Positions 140 to 31,932 of a stretch of DNA of 64,000 bases are shown here, in pieces. Origin of the DNA: Treponemataceae bacterium (GTDB lineage: Bacteria; Spirochaetota; Spirochaetia; Treponematales; Rectinemataceae); contig CAXXVZ010000005.1 of the NCBI GenBank assembly GCA_963678065.2, forward strand, positions 832,001-896,000, given 5' to 3'. Both the position numbers and the translations under genes were made by a program. Every line of letters starts with the position of its first letter. The stretch's first letter is position 1. The notes below the pieces were generated by a model. The model made no database searches. It was not told the origin of the DNA and was given only the letters and a program-made list of their open reading frames with translations.

Positions 140-278
140 GCCTAACGTTCTGCCTGTTTGCGACGATGGCGCGAGCATCGGCGAGCGCCATTGTGCCTGA
201 GCGGAATGAGCGCATGCGAGTGCAGCGATGGCCGAAGAGGGAGCCTGCGACCGATGAGCGTGAACAGCGCTGTTAGTT
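140..278 (-). repeat. attC site, variant A (29 copies; found only with the ORF-less mini-cassette)
   Basis: gcctAAC gttctgc ctgtttgcg ... cgtgaacag cgct GTTagtt; internal atggcgc/gcgccat stem. Confidence 0.88.
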
Positions 279-403
279 GCAGTCGTGACCTTCGAGCGCG
301 CTTGGATGGGGAGACTTGTCTCTCCATCCAATACTCTATCTTGCGCGCGTTCTTCTCTTCCTCTTTTCTTACCCTTATTTTTTCTTTCACGATTGCAACT
401 AAC
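272..403. repeat. ORF-less mini-cassette type I (~132 bp; 30 copies)
   Basis: gttagttgcagtcgtga...tcacgattgcaactaac. Copies start near 272,529,1962,2220,2477,19616,23771,26433,32116,32372,32631,34961,38537,40586,41788,42044,43010,43268,45438,48245,49166,49687,55890,56147,56404,58658,58917,60145,61485,61744. Confidence 0.92.
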
Positions 404-655
404 GTTCTGCCTGTTTGCGACGATGGCGCGAGCATCGGCGAGCGCCATTGTGCCTGAGCGGAATGAGCGATAGCGAGTGCAGCGATGGCCGAAGAGGGAG
501 CCTGCGACCGATGAGCGTGAACAGCGCTGTTAGTTGCAGTCGTGACCTTCAAGCGCGCTTGGATGGGGAGACTTGTCTCCTCATCCAATACTATATCTTG
601 CGCGCGTTCTTCTCTTTCTCTTTTCTTAACCCTTATTTTTCTCTTTCACGATTGC

Positions 656-797
656 AACTAACGTTCGCCTGCCTACGACGTTGTGGCGAGCATCGGCGAG
701 CCACAATGTGCCTGAGCGGAATGAGCGTCAGCGAGTGCAGCGATGGCCGAAGAAGGAGCCGAAAGGCGACTGATGAGCGTGGGCAGTGCTGTTAGCC
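656..797 (-). repeat. attC site, variant B (commonest with gene cassettes)
   Basis: taAC gttcgc ctgcctacg ... cgtgggcag tgct GTTag; internal ttgtggc/gccacaa stem. Confidence 0.88.
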
Positions 798-831
798 GCT
801 GCCACCTTCGTGTCATCCCAATACTATGTAC

Positions 832-860
832 TTGCTTATAGCAAGCTTTATGTGTATCAT
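832..860 (+). promoter_or_regulatory. Sigma70 promoter of the MarR-GNAT cassette with overlapping operator-like palindrome
   Basis: TTGCTT-17bp-TATCAT; cttgct-tat-agcaag inverted repeat at 831-845; ATG at 869. Confidence 0.6.
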
Positions 861-868
861 TCGTCTAT

Positions 869-1303
869 ATGAGTAGTATCAATGCGGTAAAAGACGTCAG
901 AACATTTAACCGTTTCTATACCAACATCATTGGCGTTATTGACCGTCATATCCTCGATAGTCCGTATTCATTGACTGAAGCAAGAATTCTCTATGAAATC
1001 TATAATAACCATACTATGACAGCTCGAAAAATAAAGAAGTATCTCCACATTGATGAAGGTTATCTGAGTCATGCACTAGAAAAAATGATCAAGAATGGCT
1101 TACTCATACGACAAAAATCCAAAGATGATAGAAGACTCAATCTCTTATCCTTAACTCAGAAGGGTGAAACTGAGTTTTTAGCACTAAGTTTGCGTTCTGA
1201 ACATGCAATTGCATCCCTTATCAAAGATCTGACCGGTAATGAACTAGAAAGGCTCACAGCTGCAATGCGGGAAATTACGTTTTTACTCACCAAAGAGGGG
1301 TAA
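869..1303 (+). CDS. MarR-family transcriptional regulator
   Basis: VRTFNRFYTNIIG, SLTEARILYEI, DDRR..LSLTQKG motifs. Confidence 0.88.
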   Translation: MSSINAVKDVRTFNRFYTNIIGVIDRHILDSPYSLTEARILYEIYNNHTMTARKIKKYLHIDEGYLSHALEKMIKNGLLIRQKSKDDRRLNLLSLTQKGETEFLALSLRSEHAIASLIKDLTGNELERLTAAMREITFLLTKEG

Positions 1304-1307
1304 TCTT

Positions 1308-1805
1308 ATGGTAACACTGGATGATATCACGATTCGAAATGAATTAGTGCCCGGCGACATTGGTTATATAATCTATCTGCATGGACTGCTGTATAGTACA
1401 GAAAATGCTTATGGACTTCAATTTGAAGCATATGTAACCGAAGGTTTGTTAGAATTTGTAAAAAGATACGATCCCTCTATAGATCGTGTATGGGTATGTG
1501 AACACAATACCCATATTGTAGGATTTATTTTGCTCATGCATCGCGATAACAATGCAGCTCAACTACGCTATTTCCTTATCCATCCGCAGTATCGGGGTAT
1601 TGGCTTAGGGAAAAGGCTTATTGAGTTGTATATGCAATTCTTACATCACTGTAACTACAGTACATCATATCTTTGGACAACCACTGAGCAGAAAACCGCT
1701 ATATCCTTATATAGGAGATATGGATTTTGTTTAACCGAGGAAAAAAAGTCATCGTTATTCGGGAAACCTTTACGTGAACAACGTTTTGACTTGGTTATTC
1801 GGTAG
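1308..1805 (+). CDS. GNAT acetyltransferase
   Basis: PGDIGYIIYLHG and AQLRYFLIHPQYRGIGLGKRL motifs. Confidence 0.9.
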   Translation: MVTLDDITIRNELVPGDIGYIIYLHGLLYSTENAYGLQFEAYVTEGLLEFVKRYDPSIDRVWVCEHNTHIVGFILLMHRDNNAAQLRYFLIHPQYRGIGLGKRLIELYMQFLHHCNYSTSYLWTTTEQKTAISLYRRYGFCLTEEKKSSLFGKPLREQRFDLVIR

Positions 1806-2735
1806 AGTTTGGGGGCTCGAAGGTGGTTGCGGCTAACGTTCTGCCTGTTTGCGACGATGGCGCGAGCATCGGCGAGCGCCATTGTGCCTGAGCGGAATGA
1901 GCAGAGCGAGTGCAGCGATGGCCGAAGAGGGAGCTTGCGACCGATGAGCGTGAACAGCGCTGTTAGTTGCAGTCGTGACCTTCGAGCGCGCTTGGATGGG
2001 GAGACTTGTCTCTCCATCCAATACTCTATCTTGCGCGCGTTCTTCTCTTCTTCTTCTCTTACCCTTATTTTTTTCTTTCACGATTGCAACTAACGTTCTG
2101 CCTGTTTGCGACGATGGCGTGAGCATCGGCGAACGCCATTGTGCCTGAGCGGAATGAGCGAATGCGAGTGTAGCGATGGCCGAAGAGGGAGCCTGCGACC
2201 GATGAGCGTGAACAGCGCTGTTAGTTGCAGTCGTGACCTTCGAGCGCGCTTGGATGGGGAGACTTGTCTCCTCATCCAATACTATATCTTGCGCGCGTTC
2301 TTCTCTTCCTCTTCTCTTACCCTTATTTTTTTCTTTCACGATTGCAACTAACGTTCTGCCTGTTTGCGACGATGGCGTGAGCATCGGCGAACGCCATTGT
2401 GCCTGAGCGGAATGAGCAAAGCGAGTGTAGCGATGGCCGAAGAGGGAGCTTGCGACCGATGAGCGTGAACAGCGCTGTTAGTTGCAGTCGTGACCTTCGA
2501 GCGCGCTTGGATGGGGAGACTTGTCTCCTCATCCAATACTCTATCTTGCGCGCGTTCTTCTCTTCCTCTTCTCTTACCCTTATTTTTTCTTTCACGATTG
2601 CAACTAACGTTTGCCTGCCTACGACGTTGTGGCGAGCATCGGCGAGCCACAATGTGCCTGAGCAGAATGAGCGACAGCGAGTGCAGCGATGGCCGAAGAA
2701 GGAGCTGAAGGCGACTGATGAGCGTGGGCAGTGCT

Positions 2736-3348
2736 GTTATGTGCTGTGTTTTTGGGGCACACCCTGTTTCTTCTCTTCATTTCTATAATTCTTATTCCTT
2801 TACTCTTAACCCTTTATCTTTGCATTTTAATACTTTATTCAGATACATACGCACTTTATTTCTCTATACCATAGTTATTTATTTACTTTGACAGTGCCTC
2901 TTTTCTTATATCCTACTACCTATATATTTTATCCTTAAATTCATATTTACGTTTTCGACTATTATAGTTCAGTACATGTTTTTCGATGTTTCCAATTCAA
3001 AAATCTACCATTTTTACTCATAAACCATATAGTAATAATGCCACTACTCAATATGTTTCTATACTTCAAAAATCACATTTTTTAGATTCAAATAGTTCAT
3101 GAGAAAAACAGCAGCATCTTCGAAAGGCGTTTTGAAATCTATGATAATCCTATACCCAGAAATCCTATTTTTTATCTATACCATTTTTGTACTGCATATA
3201 CTACCAACACTGAATATAGCACTGATCCACAATTACTACAGAATTGTGTATAAACCCAATATCAGAAGATTCTATTTTTGAATGCTCTGACGTCATTCAG
3301 AATCATATAGTTTCGCACGAGATCCGCCCCAAAAACATTGCACATAAC
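2736..3348. other. Long ORF-less cassette (family L)
   Basis: AT-rich, no credible ORF; homologous to 9517-10141 and 54266-54896. Confidence 0.75.
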
Positions 3349-3687
3349 GTTTGCCTGCCTACGACGTTGTGGCGAGCATCGGCGAGCCACAATGTGCCTG
3401 AGCGGAACGAGCGCATGCGAGTGCAGCAATTGGAAATGGCAAGTAGTTTTCCCCACCATATGGCAACTAGGAATCCCCACCCGGTAGAGGGTTATTCCTC
3501 CTTCTTTGCAGAGATGCGATATGACTCCCCTGACAGGGAGAAAATCTTTGCGTGATGCATGAGACGATCCAACAGGGCTGCGGTCATAACCTCGTCGCCC
3601 ATGAGTTCTGACCAAGAGTTCAGGTCCTTGTTGCTCGTCACGACGATAGAGGCACGTTCATAGAGATCCGAGACGAAGGTGAAAAAG

Positions 3688-4961
3688 GGCTCTTCGCTGT
3701 TTCATGTGGGTAACTGCCCCAGTTTACCGGCGACAATGTAGGTCATGATCTTGAGATTTTTGATAGTTCGGAATCCTCTGGCTCTGGTCTTTGCTGACTG
3801 AATCAGACTATTCAACGATTCAAGAAGCCCATTTGTCACTCCGGATGTAAGCCACCGAACGACTCCATTCCAGTGTCGTTTGAGCATCGCAGCAAAATTG
3901 ATGATTGGGGTAAGCTGTGATCGTGTTGCCCATACTCTCCATTTTTTAAGTTCTTCTATGGCTCGAGAAGCCGAGAATTCGAAAAGTCCCTTGAAAATGT
4001 TCATCATTCGCCATGCTCGCCCTGTTTTTAACTGTAATCCTGACAAGGTGTTGAGACGGGCCAAATTCTTAACCGACAGATTGTAGGGGTTGCTCAACCA
4101 GACATATTTCGAACCTCTGAGTACCGTTTCCATCGTTGATTCTTCTTTCCGCACGTCGTTGACTGCTTCACCCAGAAGCTTCATGACATGAAACCGATCA
4201 AACGTGAGAGCAGCCTGGGGAAGATGCTCTTCGATCCCGGACATGAACGCCGGCGACATATCGGTACAGACCGTCCGTGATAGCAGTTTTCGAGCCTCCA
4301 TGGGCTTCCAGATGCTCTGTAAAGGCTTTTATAGTGGATGCATCCTTGCCTTCGGTCACATATATGGCTTTCCCTGTATCGAGATCGGCCACAACGGTGA
4401 TGTATGAGTGTCCGCGTTTGGCTGCTGTTTCGTCGATTCCGATTCGTGTGGTTTTCGATAAATCTTGTGTAGCCACGTCTTCGGAAACATAATGGTCCAT
4501 AATTCGCCACACTCGCGTATCGGTGGTAGCTGTCAGTCTGGAAACTGCCTTGACGCTCATTTCCTTGACCATGATCATCATGAGGGCTTCGTACAGCAGG
4601 GTAAATCCCGATCCTTTACGCGCCCACGGGATATCAATCAGATGAACGCCATGCTCAGGACAGTCTATCCGCGGAACTCGTGCATGCAGATAGGCTTCAT
4701 GCTGGAAAAAATTGAGGTGACGCCATGTTTTGGGCATCGTATCGTAGGCTGTACCCTTGTAATCGCAGGAAAAACACGGAAAACGACTCCCGGGCTTGAA
4801 CCCAAGCTGTATATCAAGCCGATGTTCTGTTGGTTTGAACTCTATGTTCTCAACAATCCAGGGTTCAGATAATCCAAGCGCAAGGGCGAATAGTTCTACG
4901 TCTTTCATGCTGCTCATCCTACCATGCTTCCTTGGTTACCCACACGATTCGTTGAAGAGCC
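3688..4961 (-). mobile_element. ISL3-family IS
   Basis: GGCTCTTC ends; 8-bp target duplication tgaaaaag at 3680-3687 and 4962-4969. Confidence 0.92.
3702..4917 (-). pseudogene. ISL3 transposase, frameshifted
   Basis: WRHLNFFQHEAYLHARVPR, IGIDET, DMSPAF, FDRFHV, TNGLLESLNS motifs split over two frames; one extra C at ~4271. Confidence 0.85.
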
Positions 4962-5510
4962 TGAAAAAGAGATTGGCTTCCTTGCGCTCGATAGGAGTGT
5001 AGCCAATCTCATCAATGATCATGAGGTTGGCCTTCGCGAGCCGGCTTAGCCTGAACTGAGCGCTGCGTGCGGCGTCAGAGCGCACGAGGAGCTTCACCAG
5101 TGAGGTCATGCGCTCGTAACAAACCGAATAGCCTTTGCGTACGGCCACATGGCCAAGAGCGATTGCGAGATGGGTCTTTCCGAGTCCAGGAGGCCCGAAG
5201 AGCAGAAGGTTCTCGTGACGGTCTATCCAAGAGCACTCGGTGAGCTCAGAGAGGTCTCGTTTTCCAATTCCTGCTACTCGGCCGAGTTTGAAATCCTCGA
5301 GGCGCTTTACGACGGGAAAATGGGCCATGGCGAGGCCTCGTTTGAGGCGCCTGTCGCCGCGATCCTGTAGTTCGACGTCCACGAGGGTCTCGAGGAAGGC
5401 AAGGCATGTCAGTCCCCCGCTTTCAGCTTGTTTAAGAAGCTCAGGAAGCCGTGACGACGCGCCACGAAGCCGCAGGGACTCCAGTTTACGAGCGGATTCT
5501 GCGAGGGCGC

Positions 5511-7058
5511 TCATTCTTCGTGCCTCTGCGTATCGACGAGCGCGTCGAGGAATCGCTGATACTCGCTGACCGAGCGTGTGGCAACTAGTGGAAGGTCTCT
5601 GGTTTGATGAAGGCCGCGGTACGGCGAAGGCGCCACTGCGGGCACTGGCGTCGTGCTGTTGACCGCGTCGATGAGATCCTGGGCGCTTGCAAGTCCTCTA
5701 TCCAGGCAGAACTTCAATGCAAGCACGAGTTTCTCTCTGTCGATGTTGCGCTTGAGAAGCTTCCGAAGTCGGCCAGCGTGCTCCCGGAAGTAGCGTCGAT
5801 ACTCGGTATAGATACCATCGACGAAGCTCCCCCACTCGGGAAGATCATCTACTGCGGCGACAAGATCCGCGCGGAGCGTTTCCTGGGATCCTTCGCGATC
5901 GCGATAGTGAGCCTTGTCCAGCACCGTTCCGCCGGGTGTTGCCGCTTCGCGATGCGCCGCGATCTGGATACCCGTCTTCGTATCGAATACCAGGATGAGT
6001 CCGTCCTTGCGCTCGATAGTGACCTCGTTGAGCCGGTACGAGTTCGGCACCGAGTACCTGGTCGCGGCGATCGATATAAGGCTTTTCTGATCCACGTTAC
6101 GGCTCTCTCGGCAGCCCGATGCGGTGTCCGCGCGGAAAATAGACGCTCGGAGCGCCCGCAAGACGGGTTTCTCGTGCGCTTCGAAGTCCGCGAGCGGCAT
6201 GAGACGCGTGGCTTGGCTCAGTTTTGCGTTCACTCGTAAGAGCCATTTGCGCATGCCTGCCTGGAGTTCGTCGAAGGTCGCGAAGCTGCGGCTCGAGAAA
6301 TAGCTCGTTTTGACGTATTTGACCGCATTCTCGACCTTTCCTTTCGATTCCGGATCGGCCGCACGGCAGACACGGAGCCGCAGTCCCTGTTCTGCGACGA
6401 ACTCAGCAAAGGCTTTTGTCGTCGTGAGGTCGCCAAGGTTTTCCGTCACAATCATTGTCCGGTCCTGATCCATGACGAGTTCTTCGGTGATACCGCCAAA
6501 AAACTCGAAGGCGTCCAGGAGATGGCCGATCACATCCTCGCTGGTAAAGGGCCTGGATTGGGCCGCTACGTAGCGGTAACGGCTTCGTGAGAGTACTACG
6601 ACAACAAACCAAGCCTTTCCGATGTTCGTCGTCTCTACGCCGAAATCAATCTGAGCCTGCTTGCCGTAGGCCAGAGGCTCCACAGGACGATATTCCCGAC
6701 ACAGGCCCACCTTAATCGCACCGGATGCCTTGAGATACGTCAGGTAGTTCCGCAACGTACGGTCCGAGCCTGGAAGCTCTCCGTATTTCTCGCTTAAGTA
6801 GTCGTGGACGGACGATGAGTAGACCATTCTGCCTTCGTGGTTCTTTTTAAAAATCTCGAGGATTTCGTCCTTGTAGACCGAAAAAGCCTTACCGCGTTCT
6901 GCCATTCGCTCGAGATACCGTAAGAATTGGTCATTGTCCATGCGCAGGTACTTTCTCACGGTCTTGCGGTCCTTGCCAAGTTTTACCGCTAGTGCGCTGA
7001 CTGTGAGTCCTTGCCTGTGCCCTGTTCGTACGATGTTGTAGTCCTTCATGGTACTCAT
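5511..7058 (-). CDS. istA: IS21 transposase IstA
   Basis: HTH N-terminus, QAQIDFG, PESKGKVENAVKYVK, RYSVP motifs; overlaps istB start. Confidence 0.92.
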   Translation of the reverse strand: MSTMKDYNIVRTGHRQGLTVSALAVKLGKDRKTVRKYLRMDNDQFLRYLERMAERGKAFSVYKDEILEIFKKNHEGRMVYSSSVHDYLSEKYGELPGSDRTLRNYLTYLKASGAIKVGLCREYRPVEPLAYGKQAQIDFGVETTNIGKAWFVVVVLSRSRYRYVAAQSRPFTSEDVIGHLLDAFEFFGGITEELVMDQDRTMIVTENLGDLTTTKAFAEFVAEQGLRLRVCRAADPESKGKVENAVKYVKTSYFSSRSFATFDELQAGMRKWLLRVNAKLSQATRLMPLADFEAHEKPVLRALRASIFRADTASGCRESRNVDQKSLISIAATRYSVPNSYRLNEVTIERKDGLILVFDTKTGIQIAAHREAATPGGTVLDKAHYRDREGSQETLRADLVAAVDDLPEWGSFVDGIYTEYRRYFREHAGRLRKLLKRNIDREKLVLALKFCLDRGLASAQDLIDAVNSTTPVPAVAPSPYRGLHQTRDLPLVATRSVSEYQRFLDALVDTQRHEE

Positions 7059-7390
7059 TTCTTGTGCCGCATGCTCGCAAGCATAGCGGCCAAGGCCCCT
7101 GTGGGTGGGGAATCCTATTTGCCAACTGCTGGGGAATTCAGTTTACCATTTCCAGAGCGTATGCGAGTGCAATGAAGGCCGAAGAAGGAGCCGAAGGCGA
7201 CTGATGAGCGTGGGCAGTGCTGTTAGGCGACGTGTTGTTTTGCGTTTCTTCAAAATACACAATTACGTTGATACAGTTGTCAGATGTATTTTATCTACTG
7301 CTTTGCTGTTACCTAAAAATGGGGACTATATCATAAATGATTTCCTACTGATGTTTTAGTCTAATCAATGCTTGAAGTCATCTAAACATA

Positions 7391-7912
7391 CTATGCTGTA
7401 CAATAAGCTTCTTTTATTGACCTAATAGTTTTTAGTGCCCAGTCATAATGGCTGGATGTTGCTGATACTAGATATGCACCTAACGATGTTGTTCCTGTCC
7501 ATGCGTACTTTTTTTTAGTAAATAATTCATCATCACTATGTTTTTGTATTATTTCTATCATTTCTTTATGACTTTTCTTTATTAGCTTTATTGCTTCATT
7601 TAATTCTGTTCCTTTATACTTTTCATAAATTCTATGATTTAGGACAGGCAAGGTTTGCCAGGTAACATCTTCTGCCGGAATAGCTGGCTTCTTGCCGGAC
7701 ATTCCAATTTTATACCAATTCTTCATCATCGAATGCCATTCATGTAAATGACAAATCACATCAGCTATTGTCTTATCTCTATCATTGAGTTCATTATTTT
7801 CGTATGATTTAACTTGATATTCTTTGGGTAGCGATTCAATGAACACTAATAGTTTTGTAAGGTTTTCATCGCCAAGCGACAGTAGCTCTGCTTTGTTGGT
7901 TGGTCTAGGCAT
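7391..7912 (-). CDS. ClbS/DfsB-family (DUF1706) four-helix-bundle protein, copy 1
   Basis: MPRPTNKAELL, RDKTIADVICHLHEWH, TGTTSLGAYLVSATSSHYDWA. Confidence 0.8.
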   Translation of the reverse strand: MPRPTNKAELLSLGDENLTKLLVFIESLPKEYQVKSYENNELNDRDKTIADVICHLHEWHSMMKNWYKIGMSGKKPAIPAEDVTWQTLPVLNHRIYEKYKGTELNEAIKLIKKSHKEMIEIIQKHSDDELFTKKKYAWTGTTSLGAYLVSATSSHYDWALKTIRSIKEAYCTA

Positions 7913-8202
7913 GTAATTCTCCTAAATTAATTCGCGCCAAAGGCGTCCTGTTAACAGCATTTACCGTGATACATATAAACCTATTTGTATAAGTGGTAAA
8001 ACACTAAAATGGTAATCTCTGGAAGGATCGCGCAAAACAATATGTCGCCTAACGTTCGCCTGCCTACGACGTTGTGGCGAGCATCGGCGAGCCACAATGT
8101 GCCTGAATGGAACGAGCGTATGCGAGTGGAGTGAAGGCCGAAGAAGGAGCCGAAGGCGACTGATGAGCGTGGGCAGTGCTGTTAGGTGAAGTTGTTCAGG
8201 CA

Positions 8203-9072
8203 CTATCTCCCGTAATACTCAATTACTTCTCTCGCCCTTCTTGTAATGAACTCATTTTTATCTGTATTTCCGATTGATATTACCAAATCTTTAATCTGAC
8301 GCTCTATTTCCCACGTCGAATCTGGTTTCATTTTGCTTCTTAATAGATCCAACGCTTTCGTAATATGTACCGATTCCACCTTTTCCCGTTTCAAAAGCCA
8401 GAGTATTTCCAGATAATCTCCTTGATACATATTCGGAAATGTAAGCTTTTTTATAGTGGTATGGATAAACGATGTACTATCATGCGAACTGAAGCAAACA
8501 TCATGCAGTAAAATAAAGGCTATACACTGAGCACGTAGCTTTTTAGCATTTTCTGATCGTTTGTTCTCAGGAATAAAGGATAATCCCTTCAAGAGCTTCA
8601 CAATTCCCCAATAACAGGTATGTTTTCCATAGCAACTACGATTCGAACAATACGGAAAGGAAGAAGGAGTCTTGAAATCCCCATCATCAAATCGTTGGTA
8701 GTCTGCAAAAAAGTCTATGATGCTTGTAATAACAGATTCATTTTCAAAATGAAAATATGAATGCACATACAGCATATTCCCATTCAAGCACGGAATTGGG
8801 AAATGAGTTTTCCCCAAAGAGTAAATATTCACGGTTCGATCGAGAAAATGATTTGCTATCGTCTGCAAAGGTCTGATTAGGCTAGTTATTCTATAATCGC
8901 AGTGCATATCAGCTAACAGGATGAGCGTCCATAAGGTGGATTTATAATTGGGTACGTAATAATTCAACGCTGGGTAATGCGTATCCCTTTTATCCAGAAC
9001 GTTCCAACATCCATTTTCATCCTGCAATTCAAGTATCTTTGACGTAAGTGATTGTGCTAAATCTGTAGTCAT
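8203..9072 (-). CDS. Hypothetical protein, prenyltransferase/squalene-cyclase-like repeat fold
   Basis: QDENGCW, PNYKSTLWTL, PCLNGN, LTFPNMYQGDYLEIL; 289-aa ORF fills the cassette. Confidence 0.6.
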   Translation of the reverse strand: MTTDLAQSLTSKILELQDENGCWNVLDKRDTHYPALNYYVPNYKSTLWTLILLADMHCDYRITSLIRPLQTIANHFLDRTVNIYSLGKTHFPIPCLNGNMLYVHSYFHFENESVITSIIDFFADYQRFDDGDFKTPSSFPYCSNRSCYGKHTCYWGIVKLLKGLSFIPENKRSENAKKLRAQCIAFILLHDVCFSSHDSTSFIHTTIKKLTFPNMYQGDYLEILWLLKREKVESVHITKALDLLRSKMKPDSTWEIERQIKDLVISIGNTDKNEFITRRAREVIEYYGR

Positions 9073-9117
9073 ACTGATTTCCCACTAAACGAGTGTGTGG
9101 TGTGCCTGAACAATTTC

Positions 9118-9258
9118 ACCTAACGTATGCCTGCCTGCGACGTTTTGGCCCGCATCGGCGGGACAAAATGTGCTTGAGCGGAACGAGCGAATGCGAGTGA
9201 AGTGAAAGCCGAAGAAGGAGCCGAAGGCGACTGATGAGCGGGGGCAGCGCTGTTATGT
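9118..9258 (-). repeat. attC site, variant D
   Basis: Same frame as other attCs; internal ttttggcc cgcatcggcg ggacaaaa stem. Confidence 0.85.
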
Positions 9259-9389
9259 GCTGTCGCGATCTTGGTTTAGCGCACTGAAAGGTGGTGGCTG
9301 GATGCCACCACTTTTCAAGAAATATCCTGTGCGCGTTCTTTCTTTATCTTCTCTTCACTTTAGATACATTCCTCGCGATTGCACATAAC
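9252..9389. other. ORF-less mini-cassette type II, copy 1
   Basis: 138 bp, nested inverted repeats, near-identical copy at 49425-49562. Confidence 0.8.
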
Positions 9390-9516
9390 GTTCGCCTGCC
9401 TACGACGTTGTGGCGAGCATCGGCGAGCCGCAATGTGCCTGAATGAAACGAGCGAATGCGAGTGAAATGAAGGCCGAAGAAGGAGCCACAGGCGACTGAT
9501 GAGCGTGGGCAGTGCT

Positions 9517-10141
9517 GTTATGTGCTGTGTTTTTGGGGCACACCCTGTGTCTTTTCTTCATTTCTATTATTCTTATTCCTTTACTCCTTACCCTTTTTCT
9601 TTGCAGTTTATTACTTTATTCAGATTCATACATGTTTTATTCCTCTATACCATAGCTAGTTTTATTTTTGGCAGTATCTCTTTTCTTATATCCTAATACC
9701 TGTTTACTTCCCCCCTTACTTTATCTATGTTTTTTTACTATCATTTTTTAACACACTTTTTAATAGATAGTTCCAATTCCAGAATCCACTGTTTTTACTC
9801 ATAAAAAATACAGTACATATTCCCACTACTCAATATTTTCTATACTTCAAAAATCACTTTTTGGGATTCACCTATTTCATGGCACATATCTCATGAGAAA
9901 AATTGCAGCACCTTAGAAAGATGTTTTGAACTTTATGATAATCCATATTCAAAAATCGTATTTTTTATTTATACCATTTTTGTATTGCACATACCAATAA
10001 CACTGAATATAGCACTGATCCACAATTACTACAGGATTGTTCATAAACCCAGTATCAGGAGATCCTATTTTTGAATACTCTGACGTCATTCAGAATCATA
10101 CAGTTCAGTAAGAGATCCGCCCCAAAAACATTGCACATAAC
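9517..10141. other. Long ORF-less cassette (family L)
   Basis: Same ends and colinear homology with 2736-3348. Confidence 0.75.
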
Positions 10142-10294
10142 GTTCGCCTGCCTACGACGTTGTGGCGAGCATCGGCGAGCCACAATGTGCCTGAGCGGAA
10201 TGAGCGAATGCGAGTGGAGTGAAGGCCGAAGAAGGAGCCACAGGCGACTGATGAGCGTGGGCAGTGCTGTTAGGCGATGTTCCAGCGCGATCTT

Positions 10295-10570
10295 CTATTC
10301 AATTTTGATCAATAATTTCTTCCCAAATACTTCTGCTACTTTCTCCAAGGTCGATAACCGAATATCTTCTGCATGATTTTCCATCCGAGATATGACACTT
10401 TTCTTTGTCTGTAATCGTGTTGCCAATTCTTCCTGGGTCATTCCTTCATTTTTCCTGAGTTCTTTAAGCATGATTCCTATCTTAAATTCCTCATATCCTT
10501 TCTCATATCCTATGCCAAATTCCGGATCTTTCTTTTTCCTGTTTTCAATATAGACAGATAAATCACTCAT
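10295..10570 (-). CDS. XRE/HTH antitoxin (HigA-like)
   Basis: [16 protein letters not shown]...VISRMEN; ATGA overlap with the toxin. Confidence 0.85.
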
Positions 10571-11109
10571 TTTTTTACCCTCGTAAAATACTCTGTACGA
10601 TATTTTTCTGCCCTTTGGATCTCATCTCGTGGTGTTTTCTGAGTCTTTTTACCAAACCCATTAGTCAGAACAACTAGATTTCCAGAATCCATAAAGCACA
10701 ATATCCTATATGCCATCCGACCTACATCGATTCGACATTCCCATAGTTCATCAGTTCCCGATAGTTTCTTGAAATACTGAATCGGAACTCTGTCCATTTC
10801 TTCTACAATCCGTAATACCCAGGTTATCTTTTGTAATTCTTTACCTGATACAGAATCAAAAAACTCTTCTATGGGACATCGTCCTTCCTGATTTCCCGGA
10901 AAATTGTAGCTATGAATAAATATGTCTATATTATAAATAGAAATGATTCACCATCCGAGAGCGTTGCATAGCTGTATTTGTAGCTATACTTCTTGCCCAT
11001 GAAAATATGTAACTTCTATTTGGATATGAAGTTACCAATTCCCTAGTTACAATGCGCCGGGAAATCAAGGTCCTTCGGAAGTCCTATAGAAGATTATTGT
11101 TCTCTTCAT
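10567..11109 (-). pseudogene. RelE/HigB (Gp49-like) toxin interrupted by a MITE
   Basis: MKRTIIFYRTSEG | RCPIEEFFDS...LWECRI...GFGKKTQKTP rejoins in frame when 10887-11075 is removed. Confidence 0.85.
10887..11069. mobile_element. 183-bp non-autonomous element (MITE), IS1634-like ends
   Basis: IRs cctgatttcccgg..attgtagcta / tagttacaat..ccgggaaatcaag; 6-bp duplication gtcctt at 10881-10886 and 11070-11075. Confidence 0.85.
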
Positions 11110-11115
11110 GTATAC

Positions 11116-11144
11116 ATGTTAGCACATATGCTAACTACCGTCAA
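11116..11144 (-). promoter_or_regulatory. TA promoter with operator palindrome
   Basis: TTGACG-17-TAACAT; gttagca-cata-tgctaac at 11118-11135; ATG 6 nt after -10. Confidence 0.6.
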
Positions 11145-11330
11145 GTTTCTTTTCTCCTCTTCGCGCTGGAATTTCGCCTAACGTTTTGTGCCTACGACGT
11201 TTCGGACCGCATCGGCGGGCCGAAATGTGCCTGAGTGAAGTGAGCGCATGCGAGCGGAACGATGGCCGAGGAGCCATGAAATGGCGACGAGCAGGGGCAC
11301 GGTGTTAGGCGATGTGTGTGCGCGACTGTC

Positions 11331-11729
11331 TTACCAAATTACTTTTAGTCCATCTTCTTCATATTTTTTAAAATTTTCATCTTTACTTATTATTCCCATC
11401 TTTCTATGAAGTGCTTGCCATATCAACATTCGATCAAATGGATCTTTATGATCCTCATAATAACTCAATTCATTATATGTACTGGATTCATCTTCATCCA
11501 AAGTAATTATTGAACCCAATTGTTTCGCATATTTTGGTAAATCCTTGATCTCTATTCCTTCCAAGGTATATCGGTGCATTCGAACTTTTATCGCTATTTC
11601 CCAAAATGAAATAGTGCTGATATAGATTCCAGTATCTTTATTTTTAAGTATATCAGATACTCTTTTACTTAACTTATCAGAATCCAATATAGACCAAATA
11701 AATGTATGTGTATCAAGTAAATACATCAT
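11331..11729 (-). CDS. vapC: PIN-domain toxin (VapC-like)
   Basis: YLLDTHTFIW, STISFWEIAIK, HKDPFDRMLIWQA. Confidence 0.9.
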   Translation of the reverse strand: MMYLLDTHTFIWSILDSDKLSKRVSDILKNKDTGIYISTISFWEIAIKVRMHRYTLEGIEIKDLPKYAKQLGSIITLDEDESSTYNELSYYEDHKDPFDRMLIWQALHRKMGIISKDENFKKYEEDGLKVIW

Positions 11730-11732
11730 ATT

Positions 11733-11960
11733 TTATCCCAAAAACTCTTCAACAGTAATTTTCCCATCTCCCATGATGGAAAATGATGCTTTCCCATTGA
11801 GCATACCTATTTTTCGTTGTTTTTTTTCTTCATTCGGTACAAGCATTGCGATAGGTTTTTTTGCTTTCCCATACAGTATCCTAACTTTTTCTCCATGCTT
11901 TACGAGTTCAAGGAGTTCAGAAAAGTGGCTCTTGAATTCTCCAACCGTCATCTCATTCAT
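11733..11960 (-). CDS. Phd/YefM-family antitoxin
   Basis: MNEMTVGEFKSHFSELLELVKHGEKVRI. Confidence 0.85.
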   Translation of the reverse strand: MNEMTVGEFKSHFSELLELVKHGEKVRILYGKAKKPIAMLVPNEEKKQRKIGMLNGKASFSIMGDGKITVEEFLG

Positions 11961-11966
11961 ATCCCA

Positions 11967-11995
11967 AGTATACGTTATTCTTTTCAAGTTGTCAA
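11967..11995 (-). promoter_or_regulatory. Sigma70 promoter, leaderless arrangement
   Basis: TTGACA-17-TATACT, 6 nt before ATG at 11960. Confidence 0.7.
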
Positions 11996-12226
11996 CTATA
12001 TCTCGCGCACACATTTCGCCTAACGTTCGCCTGCCTACGACGTTGTGGCGAGCATCGGCGAGCCACAATGTGCCTGAGCGCAATGAGCGTTAGCGAGTGC
12101 AGCGATGGCCGAAGAAGGAGCCGCAGGCGACTGATGAGCGTGGGCAGTGCTGTTAGCTGATGGTTTGCCCCCCATCCATGTCTTTTCTCTCTTCACCTTA
12201 TTCATTGTTTTTCAATATCTTATACC

Positions 12227-12736
12227 TTATATCTTTATCCAATAATAACAATGTTCATGTTCTATCTTTTCCAATATCCCATTATTCCATTCTATTACTT
12301 TTCTTGATCCTCTGTTGGTTTCATCACAGGTTATCAATACATCATTCACATCACGTTTCTTTATTTCGTTCAATGTCAGTTCCAATAACTTCTTCCCATA
12401 CCCCTTATTTCGTTGTTCTTTCCGAATCCCATATCCTATATGCCCACCATGAGCACGCAATTTATCGGTTAAGTAATGCCTCATTTTTGAGTACCCTAGT
12501 ACTTCTTCATCATCCATAAGCCAATATATTGTTTGTGGCACATATCCTTTTTCAAGCTCAGGAGCTTCATACTGCGCAATAAGTTTTTCGATATATCCCG
12601 GATACTCTTCCCATGAGATCCCATATCCACCATTCATAAATCCATTTTCTTCTTGATCAATCGATTGTAGCATCTGATAAATGTTTCTATTCGTTGTATC
12701 ACGTTCAGAAACCTTCTGAAGATAAATCCTACCCAT
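12227..12736 (-). CDS. GNAT acetyltransferase, copy 1
   Basis: GGHIGYGIRKEQRNKGYGK, LITCDETNRGSRKVIE. Confidence 0.9.
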   Translation of the reverse strand: MGRIYLQKVSERDTTNRNIYQMLQSIDQEENGFMNGGYGISWEEYPGYIEKLIAQYEAPELEKGYVPQTIYWLMDDEEVLGYSKMRHYLTDKLRAHGGHIGYGIRKEQRNKGYGKKLLELTLNEIKKRDVNDVLITCDETNRGSRKVIEWNNGILEKIEHEHCYYWIKI

Positions 12737-13087
12737 AATAATTCCTTAAAAGAACAATACTGTATCACACAATCAAATAGTGCAAAACATATGTAAATTC
12801 ACCATCCAAAGTCTCAAGCCGACACTACATTTGATACAGTTTGAAAATATTGATATCGGCATATCGGATCTCGGGGGGCAAACTTTCAGCTAACGTTTCC
12901 GGCCTGCGACGTTTGCGACCGCATCGGCGGGCGCAAATGTGCCTGAACGGAATGAGCGACTGCGAGTGGAGTGAAGGCCGAAGAAGGAGCCGCAGGCGAC
13001 TGATGAGCGTGGGCCGTGTTGTTAGGTGACGTTTTAGAGGCGAATTTAGAGAAGGCGCGCCGTCGGCCGGAGGTCCGGCGCGCTAAA

Positions 13088-13945
13088 CTATCTTGAAGTA
13101 GCATTAACCATATTCCTAATCTCATCTACAGTATAATTTGGCTTTTTACTATGAATTATTGCATGACAATTTGGGCATAACGGAATTAGATCCTTCACCG
13201 GATCTATACTATGAGCTTTATCAGTCCCTGCAATAGCTACAATATGATGAACATGGATTATTTCAGTAATACTTATTCCATATGCGCTTTTTGAATCAAA
13301 TCCGCAGATTGCACACTTAGCTCCATAGTATTCAAGGCACTTATCTCTTGCAGCTCGATTCCTTCCATAGTCATTAATTTGCCTTATTTCCCTATACCCC
13401 TCAATATATCGAAGTTCGATTTCTCCAATATCATTAGCATTTTTCACATCCTGCCTTTCAGAATATTTACTTTTTGCATAATCTATTAAGCCCTGAAAAT
13501 TGCTTTTCTTGAATATTGCTGAAAAAGGCTTTCCGCCCTTTGTTATCGCAACTTTATCAACAAAGCCTTTGTGATAAGGCCAAAGTGTTTCACTTACTTT
13601 ATCAAACTCAGTGTAATCACCACAGAATGCGCATTGATCAACTTGGACAGTTTTATAATGACTTTCTTCATATTCGGAGCCAATAAAGGGTCCCTTACCA
13701 TATTTTCCAATACAATTTAGCCTTACAAAGTCTTCGCCTACAATATAAACTTCAACCCTTCCAACATTTAAGCGGAATATATTGCTATATAGAGTTACAC
13801 TCCAAACTTGGCCAGCTATTTCTTCAACATAGGCAATTGTCTTGAGCAGTTGAGATAATACAATTCGCTCTTGTTCAGGGCTAGTTATAAATCCAGACAA
13901 TATCAATGCAGCATCTGAAGAATCATTTGGATCAATTTCTTTCAT
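13088..13945 (-). CDS. HNH endonuclease (McrA-like C-terminus)
   Basis: CAICGFD...IHVHHI...DLIPLCPNCHAIIH. Confidence 0.85.
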   Translation of the reverse strand: MKEIDPNDSSDAALILSGFITSPEQERIVLSQLLKTIAYVEEIAGQVWSVTLYSNIFRLNVGRVEVYIVGEDFVRLNCIGKYGKGPFIGSEYEESHYKTVQVDQCAFCGDYTEFDKVSETLWPYHKGFVDKVAITKGGKPFSAIFKKSNFQGLIDYAKSKYSERQDVKNANDIGEIELRYIEGYREIRQINDYGRNRAARDKCLEYYGAKCAICGFDSKSAYGISITEIIHVHHIVAIAGTDKAHSIDPVKDLIPLCPNCHAIIHSKKPNYTVDEIRNMVNATSR

Positions 13946-14227
13946 TTTCTTCCTTCTATTGCGCCCGACGGCCGGAGGCCCGGGCGCTCTTCAATTTTCG
14001 ACAGAGCCTCTAAAATGTCACCTAACGTTCGCCTGCCTACGACGTTGTGGCGAGCATCGGCGAGCCACAATGTGCCTGAGCGGAATGAGCGTATGCGAGT
14101 GCAGCGATGGCCGAAGAAGGAGCCGCAGGCGACTGATGAGCGTGGGCAGTGCTGTTAGACGAAGTTATTCCATTCTTACATCGATATACTTTTTTAATTA
14201 CTAGCGATACTTATCGTTGTAATATTT

Positions 14228-15019
14228 CTATATAGCATCTCTATCTTCAACAATTGCACTTTTTCCCAAAGAAAATATATCCAAATATCCAAGAATTGTA
14301 TAAATTGCGAATCTTCTGCGTTTTTCTATTATTACAAATATTGTCGTACACATTAATGCGATTATTAATAGCATCCACAAATAATTCATATAAGTATATT
14401 TTACTAAAAGTATACTTATCATCATTACTATTATTTGCAGATAATAGACTTCTCTTATTTCATCACGAAGTTGATCCCTTTTAACTTGTTCTTGTGTTAC
14501 AGAACTATAATAATCTGCATACTCAATATACCTTATTTCACTAAGTCCATCAATATGCTTTTCTATTCCTTCAATTTGTTTTTTTAAGGTATTCATTTTA
14601 CCCTTAGATTCTGGTTGCGCCCAACATTTCAGAGAGTAGTACTCATTTATACTTTTGCAATGATTTTTAAAATATCTTTTTGCTAATTCTGGTATTGGAA
14701 CAAATAACAATGCAATTACTTCTTTTTTAAAAAACACCTTACCTATTATTTTTTTAAATAAAATATAGACAAATGAGCCTATTGCAGTTGTTATTGTCTC
14801 TAGTAGGAATAGACCTAATGCACCAATTATTGCAATAAAAAAAATTATAAGAATACTTGGTGTCAAGCTGTTTATTATTTTGAAATCAATTTTTTTAATA
14901 CTTTCAATAAACATATTTATTAAATTACGATCATCAGCTAAAACTACACACAGTATAACAAATATTAATCCCAGAAACAGCCTAAGTAAAAAATTCCAGA
15001 ATCTAATAAATGCTTCCAT
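14228..15019 (-). CDS. Hypothetical membrane protein
   Basis: 263-aa ORF fills cassette; hydrophobic segments at both ends. Confidence 0.7.
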   Translation of the reverse strand: MEAFIRFWNFLLRLFLGLIFVILCVVLADDRNLINMFIESIKKIDFKIINSLTPSILIIFFIAIIGALGLFLLETITTAIGSFVYILFKKIIGKVFFKKEVIALLFVPIPELAKRYFKNHCKSINEYYSLKCWAQPESKGKMNTLKKQIEGIEKHIDGLSEIRYIEYADYYSSVTQEQVKRDQLRDEIREVYYLQIIVMMISILLVKYTYMNYLWMLLIIALMCTTIFVIIEKRRRFAIYTILGYLDIFSLGKSAIVEDRDAI

Positions 15020-15052
15020 GCTTCTTGCCTCTTTTTCTCATGGAATAATTTC

Positions 15053-15187
15053 GTCTAACGTTTTGTGCCTCTGACGTTTCGGACCGCATCGGCGGGCCGA
15101 AATGTGCCTGAGTGAAGTGAGCGAATGCGAGCGAAACGATGGCCGAAGAGCCCTGAAAGGGCGATGAGCAGGGGCACGGTGTTAGGC
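15053..15187 (-). repeat. attC site, variant C
   Basis: gtgcctctg/caggggcac outer stem; tttcggac/ggccgaaa inner stem. Confidence 0.85.
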
Positions 15188-15201
15188 GCTGTTCTGCTAA
15201 T

Positions 15202-15951
15202 TCATGATCCTATTCGGCATACCTTTCTTTTTCTTCTTCTTGAGTATGGCTGTGATTTTAAATAGAATAATGAACAGAATATATTAATTTGATATCTCAT
15301 CTCTAATTCCATTTTTATTTTACTTGTATGAATATTCGATGATCCAGAAAGCATCAATGAAGGTGCTAAATGCAGAGGATCTTTCATTACGTTTGTGCTA
15401 TAAAAAGATTTAGTATGAATTTCATTTATTATACCTATAAAATTAAAAAGCAATTCGGGGAATGGATTGAGATTTTTTGATTCGAAAAAAGTGATTAAGT
15501 TTCTATTTTTTACAGAAGAATAATTCCTTCCACTAATATAGAAATCATTTGTATTGGAAATTGAATTAACATCAATTACCGATACATCAGGTGTAACAAA
15601 AATACTCTGCGATCTAGCTGATTCAATAGCAATATTATGATGTATTTCGAATTCAAATATTTTATTATTTCTAATATATTTTTTACTAACAATAAAATAA
15701 GAGAAATTTTTAGGATTCCCTGCTGGAGATAATTTATACCGAAATACATTATTTACTATATTTTTAGCACATGCAACAAAATTATTATTTCTATAGTATT
15801 GAACCACACTATTATATACAGAGATTTCAAAGTAATCACTTATCCTTTTTGCATGATTATAGCTATTTATATTATATCCAGAAAGGAACCCGTTAATTTC
15901 GTGCATAAATTCATTAATATCTTTAAATGGATTATTCATATTTTTACTCAT
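15202..15951 (-). CDS. Hypothetical protein, possible PD-(D/E)XK nuclease
   Basis: TPDVSVI...FFESKNL; ATGA overlap with upstream gene. Confidence 0.6.
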   Translation of the reverse strand: MSKNMNNPFKDINEFMHEINGFLSGYNINSYNHAKRISDYFEISVYNSVVQYYRNNNFVACAKNIVNNVFRYKLSPAGNPKNFSYFIVSKKYIRNNKIFEFEIHHNIAIESARSQSIFVTPDVSVIDVNSISNTNDFYISGRNYSSVKNRNLITFFESKNLNPFPELLFNFIGIINEIHTKSFYSTNVMKDPLHLAPSLMLSGSSNIHTSKIKMELEMRYQINIFCSLFYLKSQPYSRRRKRKVCRIGS

Positions 15952-16373
15952 GCATAATGATCATATATTTTTATATGATCATTAATCTTCTTTAAGAATG
16001 TCTTTGCATCAGAATAATCAAATAACTCCGATGTTATTCTATATTTTAGTAATAATTTATTAAATTCAAATATTTTGTTTTGTAAACTAAGATATTCTTC
16101 AATTCCATATTTACTATTTCCAATTTCAATGCTCTTTACTTCATGGCTATCTCGTAGCTTGACAGAATATTCACACATTGATTCAAGAATTGAGATATAA
16201 TTTCTATAATATATTGATAATGCAAGAATATAATATATTGATTGACCAAATTCGTGCAAACTACTCTCGTTCTGCTTAAGCAAATAGTCAATTTCCGTTT
16301 TTCTGGATGAATACTCTTTTTTCATTTTATCGGATAAAAAATATGGTAAATCTCTACAAAATGAGTCAATCAT
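15948..16373 (-). CDS. Hypothetical protein
   Basis: 141 aa with GAGGA RBS; first gene of a two-gene cassette. Confidence 0.7.
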   Translation of the reverse strand: MIDSFCRDLPYFLSDKMKKEYSSRKTEIDYLLKQNESSLHEFGQSIYYILALSIYYRNYISILESMCEYSVKLRDSHEVKSIEIGNSKYGIEEYLSLQNKIFEFNKLLLKYRITSELFDYSDAKTFLKKINDHIKIYDHYA

Positions 16374-16550
16374 TTAAGTCCTCTTAGCAGAATTGCGCCT
16401 AACGTTTGCCTGCCTACGACGTTGTGGCGAGCATCGGCGAGCCACAATGTGCCTGAGCGGAACGAGCGCAAGCGAGTGTAGCGATGGCCGAAGAAGGAGC
16501 CGACAGGCGACTGATGAGCGTGGGCAGTGCTGTTAGGTGAAGTACGCCCG

Positions 16551-16862
16551 CTATCTTTTCCCCAATCGTTTTCCTATTGTTCTATAAATCTCTTCTTTAT
16601 CCCTTTTACCTATTCCCCAAATTTCAACTATCTCAATTTTATCTGGAGTTATAAGCTTATAGACTATTCTATGTTTTTTATTATTTACATAAATCTTAAA
16701 AAATCCTGTAAGGTCTATATTGAACTTATGTCCTAATCGTTCTCCCAAAAACGGATTTTGAGATAATTCTTCAAGCTTTTTATCTACCTGGTTCCGCACA
16801 CTCCCATCCAATTCCTTATAATCTTTGGCTGCCTCACGTACAAATTCTACGGGATAGCTCAT
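16551..16862 (-). CDS. RelE/ParE-family toxin
   Basis: YPVEFVREAAKDYKELD, HRIVYKL, IWGIGKRD. Confidence 0.85.
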   Translation of the reverse strand: MSYPVEFVREAAKDYKELDGSVRNQVDKKLEELSQNPFLGERLGHKFNIDLTGFFKIYVNNKKHRIVYKLITPDKIEIVEIWGIGKRDKEEIYRTIGKRLGKR

Positions 16863-17134
16863 AGTTCTTGCCTCAGGCTCTCCCAGCTAACATTCTCTTT
16901 AGTATCATAGGAAGTCATTCTTTTCTTAATCATTTCATCTATTTCAAAGTATTCAAACATCTCTTCAAGATTGACAAGATGCTTATACTCATCAAAGGAG
17001 ACTAATACAGCTTCCATATTGTTGTTCTTGAGAATATAGACCGGTTCTCCCGTTGCAGATAATTCACGAATCTTTTTCGTCAATTCTTTCTGTAATCTAG
17101 TAATAGGTATAACATTATCAGAATCTACTAACAT
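16859..17134 (-). CDS. Phd/YefM-family antitoxin
   Basis: IPITRLQK, EPVYILKNNNMEAVLVSFDEY; GGAGG RBS. Confidence 0.85.
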   Translation of the reverse strand: MLVDSDNVIPITRLQKELTKKIRELSATGEPVYILKNNNMEAVLVSFDEYKHLVNLEEMFEYFEIDEMIKKRMTSYDTKENVSWESLRQEL

Positions 17135-17395
17135 AGATGCCTCCATATAATACATATTATACTATATATTATAACAATTAGTCAAATATGTTGTATTTCT
17201 TATAATCCTGATCTTAGCGGGCGTATTTCACCTAACGTATGCCTGCCTGCGACGTTTTGGCCCGCATCGGCGGGACAAAATGTGCCTGAGTGGAACGAGC
17301 GAATGCGAGTGGAATGAAGGCCGAAGAAGGAGCCAAAGGCGACTGATGAGCGTGGGCAGCGCTGTTATACGCTGTTGGGGAATTATCTTAATTAA

Positions 17396-19466: not shown

Positions 19467-19908
19467 TGCTAATTCCCCAATTGCGTATAACGTTCTGCCT
19501 GTTTACGACGATGGCGCGAGCATCGGCGAGCGCCATTGTGCCTGAGCGGAACGAGCAAAGCGAGTGTAGCGATGGCCGAAGAGGGAGCCTGCGACCGATG
19601 AGCGTGAACAGCGCTGTTAGTTGCAGTCGTGACCTTCGAGCGCGCTTGGATGGGGAGACTTGTCTCCTCATCCAATACTCTATCTTGCGCGCGTTCTTCT
19701 CTTCCTCTTCTCTTACCCCTATTTTTTTCTTTCACGATTGCAACTAACGTTCGCCTGCCTACGACGTTGTGGCGAGCATCGGCGAGCCACAATGTGCCTG
19801 AGCGGAATGAGCGCATGCGAGTGCAGCGATGGCCGAAGAAGGAGCCGATAGGCGACTGATGAGCGTGGGCAGTGCTGTTAGCTGATGTACACCCCACTCT
19901 TCCATCTT

Positions 19909-20436: not shown

Positions 20437-20785
20437 ATATCTATTCCATAAATCCTTGAGCCTGAGAATTCTGTTCAAAACATATCAGAAGTTGTTTTAC
20501 TAGTATAAACACAATCGAGCATATCTATCGATGGATGTATACGGTGGAGAAGGAATGCCGTAGGTCTGATTATTGAAAATATCTTTTCTTCTCTCGTGGG
20601 GTGTATTTCAGCTAACGTTTGTGCCTACGACGTTTTGGCCCGCATCGGCGGGGCAAAATGTGCCTGAGTGAAGTGAGCGCATGCGAGCGAAACGATGGCC
20701 GAAGAGCCCGAACGGGCGATGAGCGCGGGCACGGTGTTAGGTGCTGTACCGCCCAGATCTTAATACCCAATATTTGTATTGTATT

Positions 20786-31912: not shown

Positions 31913-31932
31913 ATAATAACCACCATAGTTTT

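Follow-up and report, generated by a model that had tools for sequence, protein, structure and literature searches.

The window analysed here is a 64,000-nucleotide (nt) stretch from a Treponemataceae bacterium (assembly GCA_963678065.2, contig CAXXVZ010000005.1; G000:C5:832001-896000). It lies inside a 177-kb array of gene cassettes with 177 attC-like repeats, in which the cassette ends form long inverted repeats broken by a mismatch at position 11. A repeat profile built from the 78 window repeats and searched over the contigs of the genome matches C5 at 177 places, on a single strand throughout, from 754682 to 931442, and the array continues past both window ends. The array begins on the right and most of its cassette genes are encoded by the minus strand, so the minus strand is taken as the top strand and the plus strand as the bottom strand. 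At the head stands a recombinase of 393 amino acids (G000:C5:931895-933076, minus strand, about 36 kb right of the window), followed by an attI-like site at about G000:C5 931571-931660; the first cassette starts ~325 nt downstream of the recombinase gene, with no repeat before it. Two traits of canonical integrons are evident: the genes are co-oriented, since among 80 unique cassettes with an open reading frame (ORF), 72 have the longest one on the top strand, and 16 multi-copy cassette families are present, as expected of mobile cassettes. The analysis covers 171 complete intervals of 176, the remaining five being skipped because their attC is split by an insertion.

To examine the cassette ends, 40 nt were taken from both ends of the 171 intervals, and 85 non-redundant end pairs were scored against shuffled partners. 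The stems of all 78 complete window cassettes end at positions 17-25, and each repeat is private to its cassette, as the first-pass annotation had claimed; the five end pairs that it named lie at its coordinates and carry the letters that it gave, with stems ending at 20, 23, 23, 22 and 22. Across the non-redundant pairs, complementarity is 96-100% at positions 1-9, drops to 44% at position 10 (mismatched in 56%), and resumes at 85-98% over positions 12-20, compared with 25-31% in the shuffles at 13-20 and 80% at 12, where T dominates. It then declines to 72% at position 21 and 54% at 22 before reaching background. Complementarity does not fall to background after 7-9 nt. At least 7 of 9 pairs form at positions 12-20 in 77/85, against a mean of 1.3 and a maximum of 6 in 1000 shuffles. 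G occupies position 8 in 84/85. At either arm, the five bases inside the stem end are mostly pyrimidines on the bottom strand (325/400 and 304/400, whole array), which makes the stem stop sharply. The outer stem fails in 5/171 intervals, all outside the window: one shows a 1-nt slip, and among four intervals of 2.3-4.6 kb, one conceals a damaged repeat and the other three have no convincing partner arm.

Position 11 is never Watson-Crick paired. On the bottom strand, the array-wide pair is G.T in 157 intervals, T.T in 14 and complementary in 0/171; in the 78 window cassettes, the counts are 74 G.T and 4 T.T. A G.T pair had been reported for every cassette compared. The mismatch itself is universal, while the fixed element is A on the 5' arm (171/171), facing G (157) or T (14), and never A, on the 3' arm.

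The arms belong to a larger site. Read along the bottom strand, the order is private stem, mismatch at 11, R arm, spacers of 5-8 and 4-5 nt, and an L stem of 8-9 base pairs (bp). The canonical attC layout, with AAC/GTT cores, R and L boxes, an unpaired spacer and a variable terminal structure, is present in 169 complete repeats, with the L stem resolved in 165. The L stem has no bulge in any of the common repeat types, and the canonical extrahelical G in the L'' box is absent. The L stem contains an A x G mismatch at its own position 11 in 165/165 resolved sites (169 examined), its A being fixed by the search anchor; the same L-stem mismatch is seen in 40/48 sites of relatives. For cassette 791-1837, the end of the private sequence and the attI junction place the inferred crossover within TAA|C at 1836/1837. 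Coordinates are given in Table 1.

Table 1. Cassette ends, attC-like repeats and other features in the window (window coordinates).
Feature	Position	Strand	Details
3' (R'') arm of cassette 791-1837	791..810	+	positions 1-9 paired; T800/G801 bubble; 802-810 private outer stem
5' (R') arm of cassette 791-1837	1818..1837	-	A at 11 on top (minus) strand, T1827 on bottom
attC-like repeat of cassette 791-1837	659..794	+ (= bottom strand)	central spacer of 7/5 nt; L stem of 9 bp, no extrahelical base; L position 11 mismatched (A x G)
Next attC-like repeat	1834..1965	+	belongs to ORF-less cassette 1962-2094
Cassette	2736..3348	-	23-nt terminal inverted repeat; G.T at 11; member of 7-copy family
Cassette	8181..9124	-	23-nt terminal inverted repeat; G.T at 11
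Cassette	43529..44282	-	22-nt terminal inverted repeat; G.T at 11; T.T at 10 and 13; PIN-domain cargo
Cassette	59178..60019	-	22-nt terminal inverted repeat; G.T at 11
Share of the array in the window	143..63661	+	attC-like repeats, 127-138 nt, one strand, bounding 78 complete cassettes
MarR-family regulator	869..1303	+	cargo of cassette 791-1837, against the array's usual direction; PF01047 E 1e-12
GNAT acetyltransferase	1308..1805	+	second cargo gene of cassette 791-1837; PF00583 E 2e-16
IS21-family element	3431..7154	-	istA, istB, ISL3 inside; sits in loop of attC-like repeat
ORF-less 128-135-nt cassette (example)	272..403	-	shortest stem, 17 nt; G.T at 11

The recombinase at the head of the array is not an IntI, a point that the first-pass annotation had missed; the position-11 mark belongs to the family of this enzyme. 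In canonical integrons, the I2 insertion docks the extrahelical bases of the folded site (PMC7790495, PMC2727003). Here, the protein scores 197 bits against TIGR02249, below the cut-off of 265, its match to VchIntIA (2A3V) is split around 2A3V residues 173-224, and 42 alignment columns corresponding to I2 are missing relative to IntI1 and a Vibrio IntI. The catalytic R, K, H, R, H and Y are all kept. Nor is it a housekeeping XerC/XerD, as it reaches 165 bits against TIGR02225, compared with 280-285 for the genome's own Xer-like pair, and the tree also separates them. Its closest named homologs are from Spirochaetota, e.g. Rectinemataceae. In a tree of 46 recombinases, IntI forms one clade (100/99) and the I2-less sequences do not come together in a resolved clade (14% of bootstraps); with its outgroups being two Xer sequences on long branches, the tree shows neither ancestry nor loss. 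The predicted fold of a homolog that is 50% identical (P0002; predicted template-modelling score 0.48) is closest to archaeal XerA, then to VchIntIA. The N-terminal domain gives a weak match to HARP (24.8 bits against a cut-off of 25), and an alignable domain is found in the same genome's canonical IntI (C3; L001:1261-2445) and in a Chryseobacterium homolog. HARP domains bind single/double-strand junctions.

Just upstream of the first cassette, two extra copies of the arm motif mark a putative attI, at the position expected of one. In three relatives (L014, L015 and L023), attI consists of inverted arms across a 6-nt spacer; this arrangement is degenerate in the present genome and in others. 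A search for a sigma-70 promoter between the recombinase and attI gave no match.

Canonical integrons serve as controls. The first-pass annotation had taken complementarity over the 7-bp R''/R' box as the baseline, which is too short: self-pairing in most canonical cassettes is described as reaching 9-11 consecutive complementary nt (PMC2727003), and 7-12 was measured here. With extension defined as at least 5/6 pairs at positions 12-17, 80/85 end pairs of the array are extended. In spirochaete arrays behind a canonical IntI, pairing runs 7-9 nt and none of 84 unique cassettes from 14 loci is extended, 70/164 intervals of this set having been dropped for uncertain register. The canonical integron of the same genome (C3) pairs over exactly 8 nt in 7/7 cassettes (extended 0/7); Vibrio anguillarum cassettes pair over 8-11 nt in 11/12 (extended 0/12), and Gemmatirosa cassettes mostly over 9-11 nt, with position 11 paired in 76% (extended 0/25). 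Both the mark and the extension are absent from the 128 canonical cassettes compared (0/128), in keeping with the expectation that the extension is not routine. For class 1 integrons, a single cassette is readable at both ends (dfrA7, 7 nt), too few for comparison. In place of the 7-11 consecutive nt of canonical cassettes, the present array has 9-10 paired nt, an obligatory mismatch at 11 and pairing on to 17-25. Most cassettes of canonical Treponema-type integrons (L011 11400-18600 = G000:C3; L053-L069) start with a small GC-rich hairpin directly after the R' box.

The arms are conserved between diverged copies. In 36 non-independent pairs of copies less than 98% identical, differences affect 8.6% of body positions and 1.3% of arm positions, so that arm change is about six times below body change. 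In the 7-copy family of cassette 2736-3348, bodies fall to 79% identity and the outer stems are identical. Of the arm changes, two appear on both arms (position 5 of one family, position 6 of another) and two on one arm only. The GC content of the outer stems is 48%, against 34% in the bodies, and stem quality is independent of the distance from attI (rho 0.06). Given that they change far less than the bodies, the arms are under selection or active homogenisation and are unlikely to be scars of cassette birth.

The mark extends to relatives of the array. Homologs of the recombinase at E 1e-45 or better occur in 145/401 Spirochaetota genomes, the weak end of which may include other recombinases. 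Among 40 spirochaete homolog loci, 23 have marked cassettes, 11 are cut off where the contig ends shortly past the gene, and 6 have none. When position 11 is left unconstrained, none of 54 end pairs from 9 spirochaete loci is Watson-Crick there; 47/54 are extended, and 49/54 have A/G at 11, counting one reversed array whose ORFs also start at the A arm. In this count, 13 intervals were dropped for wrong register of the repeat-based detector in some loci, L043 was placed with the canonical set (there only), and L075, L095 and L150 were left out. One family of genomes (f23), probably Leptospiraceae, has the homolog in 69/80 genomes and canonical IntI in 0/80, yet carries marked arrays. In Bacteroidota, 44 ORF-anchored end pairs from 17/33 loci show A/G at 11 in 35 and pairing only to 14-15. 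The mismatch is family-wide and the stem length lineage-specific, with this genome at the long end. A strict repeat detector gave no chained cassettes for any of 84 loci (L073-L156), in Bacteroidota owing to the short outer stems; relaxed and ORF-anchored versions found them. Many loci in a set of 79, e.g. alphaproteobacterial ones, showed no array at first look. Array orientation varies, being convergent toward the recombinase 3' end in L017 290-5702 (G021) and divergent upstream in L041.

Among the marked genes are tet(X) variants. On two Bacteroidota plasmids (L163 8001-9209; L164 3115-4323), tet(X2) is bounded by a 15-nt repeat with A/G at 11. The ends of tet(X3) (L073 10907-12092) also show A/G at 11, with positions 5-7 unmatched, and the gene lies directly behind tnpF, a homolog with 49% identity to the array recombinase and likewise without I2. 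Sequence at these ends suggests that the tet(X) tigecycline-resistance genes began as cassettes of this system; their mobility has been attributed to ISCR2 (PMC7722449).

Several described systems resemble this one in part. Canonical integrons share the cassette array behind a tyrosine recombinase and an attI-like site, the AAC/GTT cores, the complementary cassette ends and the better-folding bottom strand; they differ in their I2 insertion, extrahelical L base and unbroken end pairing that stops at 7-12, whereas the present array has no I2, no extrahelical base in the L stem, 17-25-nt pairing broken at 11, and conserved G8 and A11. The array is an integron-like system that lacks two features by which integrons are defined, I2 and the extrahelical base, and most likely works as integrons do. 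As described for Treponema-type integrons, the integrase is co-oriented with the cassettes (PMC3607928). The arms of Xer dif sites are 11 bp. Similarities to Xer/dif are the XerA-like predicted fold of the homolog and, in three relatives, the arm-6 nt-arm attI; Xer/dif resolves chromosome dimers, whereas here a dedicated recombinase accompanies 177 cassettes beside a separate Xer-like pair, and the attC spacers are asymmetric (5-8 and 4-5 nt). CTXphi is described as integrating in folded single-stranded form, with neither extrahelical bases nor I2 (PMC4792948). The 'Integron-like' subgroup of tyrosine recombinases (Smyshlyaev 2021, PMC8138268) holds IntI relatives with an incompletely conserved insertion; the sections consulted call the insertion essential for integron function and assign no cassette arrays or sites to those relatives. 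In the judgement of the IntegronFinder authors, a recombinase near attC sites that lacks the IntI domain is 'not IntI' (PMC4889954).

Among published systems, the nearest is the Bacteroidales rAID-1 (Ross et al., 10.1101/471110), described as immunity-gene clusters limited to Bacteroidales, in which a XerD-like recombinase is accompanied by genes in the same direction and by intergenic repeats like those of integrons; the sections consulted specify no site structure, cassette boundary or end repeat. Bacteroidota loci of rAID-1-like layout carry the position-11 mark. The present array has the rAID-1 layout, a 5' XerD-like recombinase followed by at least two co-directional genes of at most 41% GC (its bodies have 34%). 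Its host is not one of the Bacteroidales, and its closest named homologs are the spirochaetal ones. The published definition also includes more than 44% identity to BF9343_RS08045 and a cargo of orphan immunity genes (10.1101/471110). In the open-licence papers of PubMed Central (PMC) and in bioRxiv, subscription papers being outside this search, no account of these ends or of I2-less integrons was found, and the rAID-1 motif figure S4 may show part of an arm.

Structure prediction outlines how the ends may act. Sites formed from a cassette's own two ends, as in the excised circle, have a mean predicted energy of -43.6 kcal/mol against -30.7 for array-form sites between neighbours; they are lower in 149/156, with a difference of -12.9, and the predicted pairing probability of the R box is 0.97 in the circle form and 0.42 in the array form. 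The first-pass annotation had proposed that the circle forms a much longer stem than the array form, biasing the reaction toward integration. The stem advantage is borne out in these predictions; the bias stays a prediction, and pairing of a cassette's own ends is predicted within the array too. The bottom strand is predicted to fold below the top in 168/168, as in canonical sites. Since the top-strand stem is expected to form as well (predicted P 0.96), folding by itself cannot select the strand.

On this basis, we consider it somewhat probable that the arms are the outer stem of a folded single-strand site, likely used by the I2-less recombinase, and that the position-11 mismatch likely marks the strand to be cut. 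The structural part of this mechanism is firmer than the reading of T11. The arms of each cassette would form the R stem of a folded bottom-strand site, which would be cut at TAA|C as described for integrons (PMC5027507). An enzyme without I2 would be unable to dock extrahelical bases as IntI does and would need another cue. Positions 2-12 may constitute its binding arm, as in Xer sites, with the bottom-strand T11, kept by all 171 cassettes, as a needed contact. With any partner of T11 other than A, the top-strand hairpin and the double-stranded 3' arm would lack that T and would be ignored. G may be preferred opposite T11 since it still wobbles with T; T.T, which brings no wobble energy, is tolerated in 14/171, which favours a reading of the base over wobble energy. 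The L stem, with G instead of T at the matching place, would be left uncut. Position 11 would thereby do the job of the extrahelical bases and I2, namely insertion in one orientation. The private stem of 6-14 bp beyond the mismatch would clamp the bubble and would be complete only when a cassette's own ends meet. The excised circle would then be a better substrate than the site between neighbours, favouring re-insertion at attI and limiting loss from the 177-cassette array.

A number of observations weigh against this mechanism. The link between enzyme and site is drawn from adjacency and co-occurrence, and the six spirochaete loci that lack marked cassettes have ample DNA. One cassette in a relative (L028 13785-15059) has A on both arms, and 3/44 Bacteroidota pairs match at position 11. 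Near attI, arm-like words have A at 11 in only 22/42 (background 32%) and in only one of the two copies in this genome, and the support of attI for the T11 reading is modest. The outer stem ends at 14-15 in Bacteroidota, mostly at 15-19 in one spirochaete family and at 17-25 here, so a long extension is not required family-wide. The repeat body gives most of the folding strand bias (-5.5 of -7.6 kcal/mol), and among the other stem mismatches, G.T is not favoured on the bottom strand (4 vs 5, and 5 vs 2 in relatives). Own-end pairing across the cassette body, predicted within the array, wins over the array-form R box in 4/5 computed 0.7-kb cassettes, which blurs the contrast between circle and array. 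A search for circles in three public runs, uninformative as it covered contigs only, found no circular cassette; its 'joints' most likely come from the ends of other cassettes, and a raw-read run gave no coverage of the cassette.

The pairing of own ends inside the array forms the core of an unlikely alternative. Here, the arms would pair across the cassette on single-stranded DNA and complete R stems at both cut sites, and the junction would be resolved to a circle by one strand exchange, the extension serving excision as much as insertion. Besides the 0.7-kb cassettes, the 14 ORF-less cassettes computed point this way (mean predicted P 0.59). The array-form site also folds poorly, with one example folding no better than shuffles (z 0.66) in addition to the low R-box probability, yet scattered duplicates in the multi-copy families suggest moving cassettes, although these could come from homologous recombination between repeats. 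Neither stem length (rho 0.17, p 0.13) nor stem energy (rho -0.03) scales with cassette length, as the closure of longer loops would suggest, and equilibrium models ignore kinetics and single-strand binding protein. It is quite unlikely that the mismatch is purely thermodynamic, with G.T stabilising the bottom hairpin, C.A weakening the top and no base being read. The prevalence of the G partner and the lower bottom strand in every site are in line with it, as is the strand-biased folding described for canonical attC (PMC5027507). The T.T pairs yield no such bias, however, a position kept constant between phyla is more than energetics alone would require, other stem mismatches carry no strand bias, and the top-strand stem is still predicted to form.

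The remaining explanations fare less well. The first-pass annotation had also raised a footprint of cassette making, in which fold-back or template switching makes one end a copy of the other, around a fixed primer-like core, and the repeat has no function thereafter. Private sequence in each cassette and the sharp stop of the stem fit this, as does the location of most last stop codons, either outside the 3' arm or at its inner boundary, much as an added adaptor would leave them; to our knowledge, no mode of cassette making has been established. The low arm divergence, the changes made on both arms, the GC-enriched stems and the lack of decay with distance from attI make it very unlikely: a copying step may create the repeat but cannot explain its upkeep, and is largely refuted as the sole cause. 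The array might instead be an ordinary integron served in trans by the genome's canonical IntI, the extension being a local elaboration of the 9-11-nt pairing and the I2-less gene a bystander. That IntI is intact (450 bits), and the AAC/GTT cores and bottom-strand bias are common to both. However, this IntI has an array of its own, with canonical attC sites and 8-nt pairing, and no canonical attC was found in a search of the 177-kb array; the L stems here lack the extrahelical base, and the marked arrays of family f23 occur without any canonical IntI, which makes service in trans highly improbable. We give scarcely any credence to a role of the arms in RNA, as paired transcript ends, or in binding a separate host factor, such as a second protein reading the bubble. 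The bases after the 5' arm are purine-rich and ribosome-site-like on the top strand (the 304/400 above), so that pairing in RNA could matter, but position 11 of the transcribed strand is A.C, the weaker form, 54 cassettes of at most 140 nt carry arms without room for a normal gene, and an Rfam scan of window 1-20000 returned a single chance match.

The folded-site mechanism bears on how integrons are understood. The possibility of recombining cassettes as single strands is credited to the I2 helix and extrahelical bases, whose origin has been framed as a chicken-and-egg problem (PMC4792948, PMC7790495). A 177-cassette array that has neither of them, and instead carries a constant mismatch in a lengthened R stem, would be a natural alternative solution. 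A broader proposal is finely balanced: that the array represents a second widespread class of gene capture, in Spirochaetota, Bacteroidota, Ignavibacteriota and probably more, in which I2-less recombinases act on folded single strands and read a programmed mismatch in an extended private R stem for strand and direction. Such a class may retain the ancestral condition of IntI and would count tet(X) among its cassettes. The position-11 mark provides a precise detector for arrays that tools based on IntI, as described, exclude by definition (PMC4889954).

Other features of the array concern its cargo and its repeats. Contigs from three public runs, which may include the source itself, span cassette 791-1837 with both arms, ruling out an assembly artefact. 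A Pfam scan of 34 window ORFs, with no immunity profiles among those run, yields GNAT, PIN, TIR, HNH, Schlafen and transposase domains and many blanks; the HNH, TIR and Schlafen-domain cargo (window 13088-13945, 45756-46817 and 56751-57587) possibly represents anti-phage cassettes. The ends of the insertion sequence in Table 1 recur in 4/5 split repeats, also at C5 near 761855, 788043 and 822895, which suggests a target preference. The ORF-less cassette of 128-135 nt makes up 50/171 cassettes (G000:C5:754682-931570), often in tandem runs, with one more copy in first position beside attI; it could be a selfish minimal cassette, a spacer or a promoter unit. A second ORF-less family of 138 nt has 3 copies (including window 9252-9389 and 49425-49562) and carries the position-6 change on both arms. 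Chimeric repeats, with the left half of one type and the right half of another (e.g. window 49036-49169), point to homologous exchange between repeats. Far from the array, one partial, degenerate and solitary repeat copy is located at G000:C2:667432-667506.

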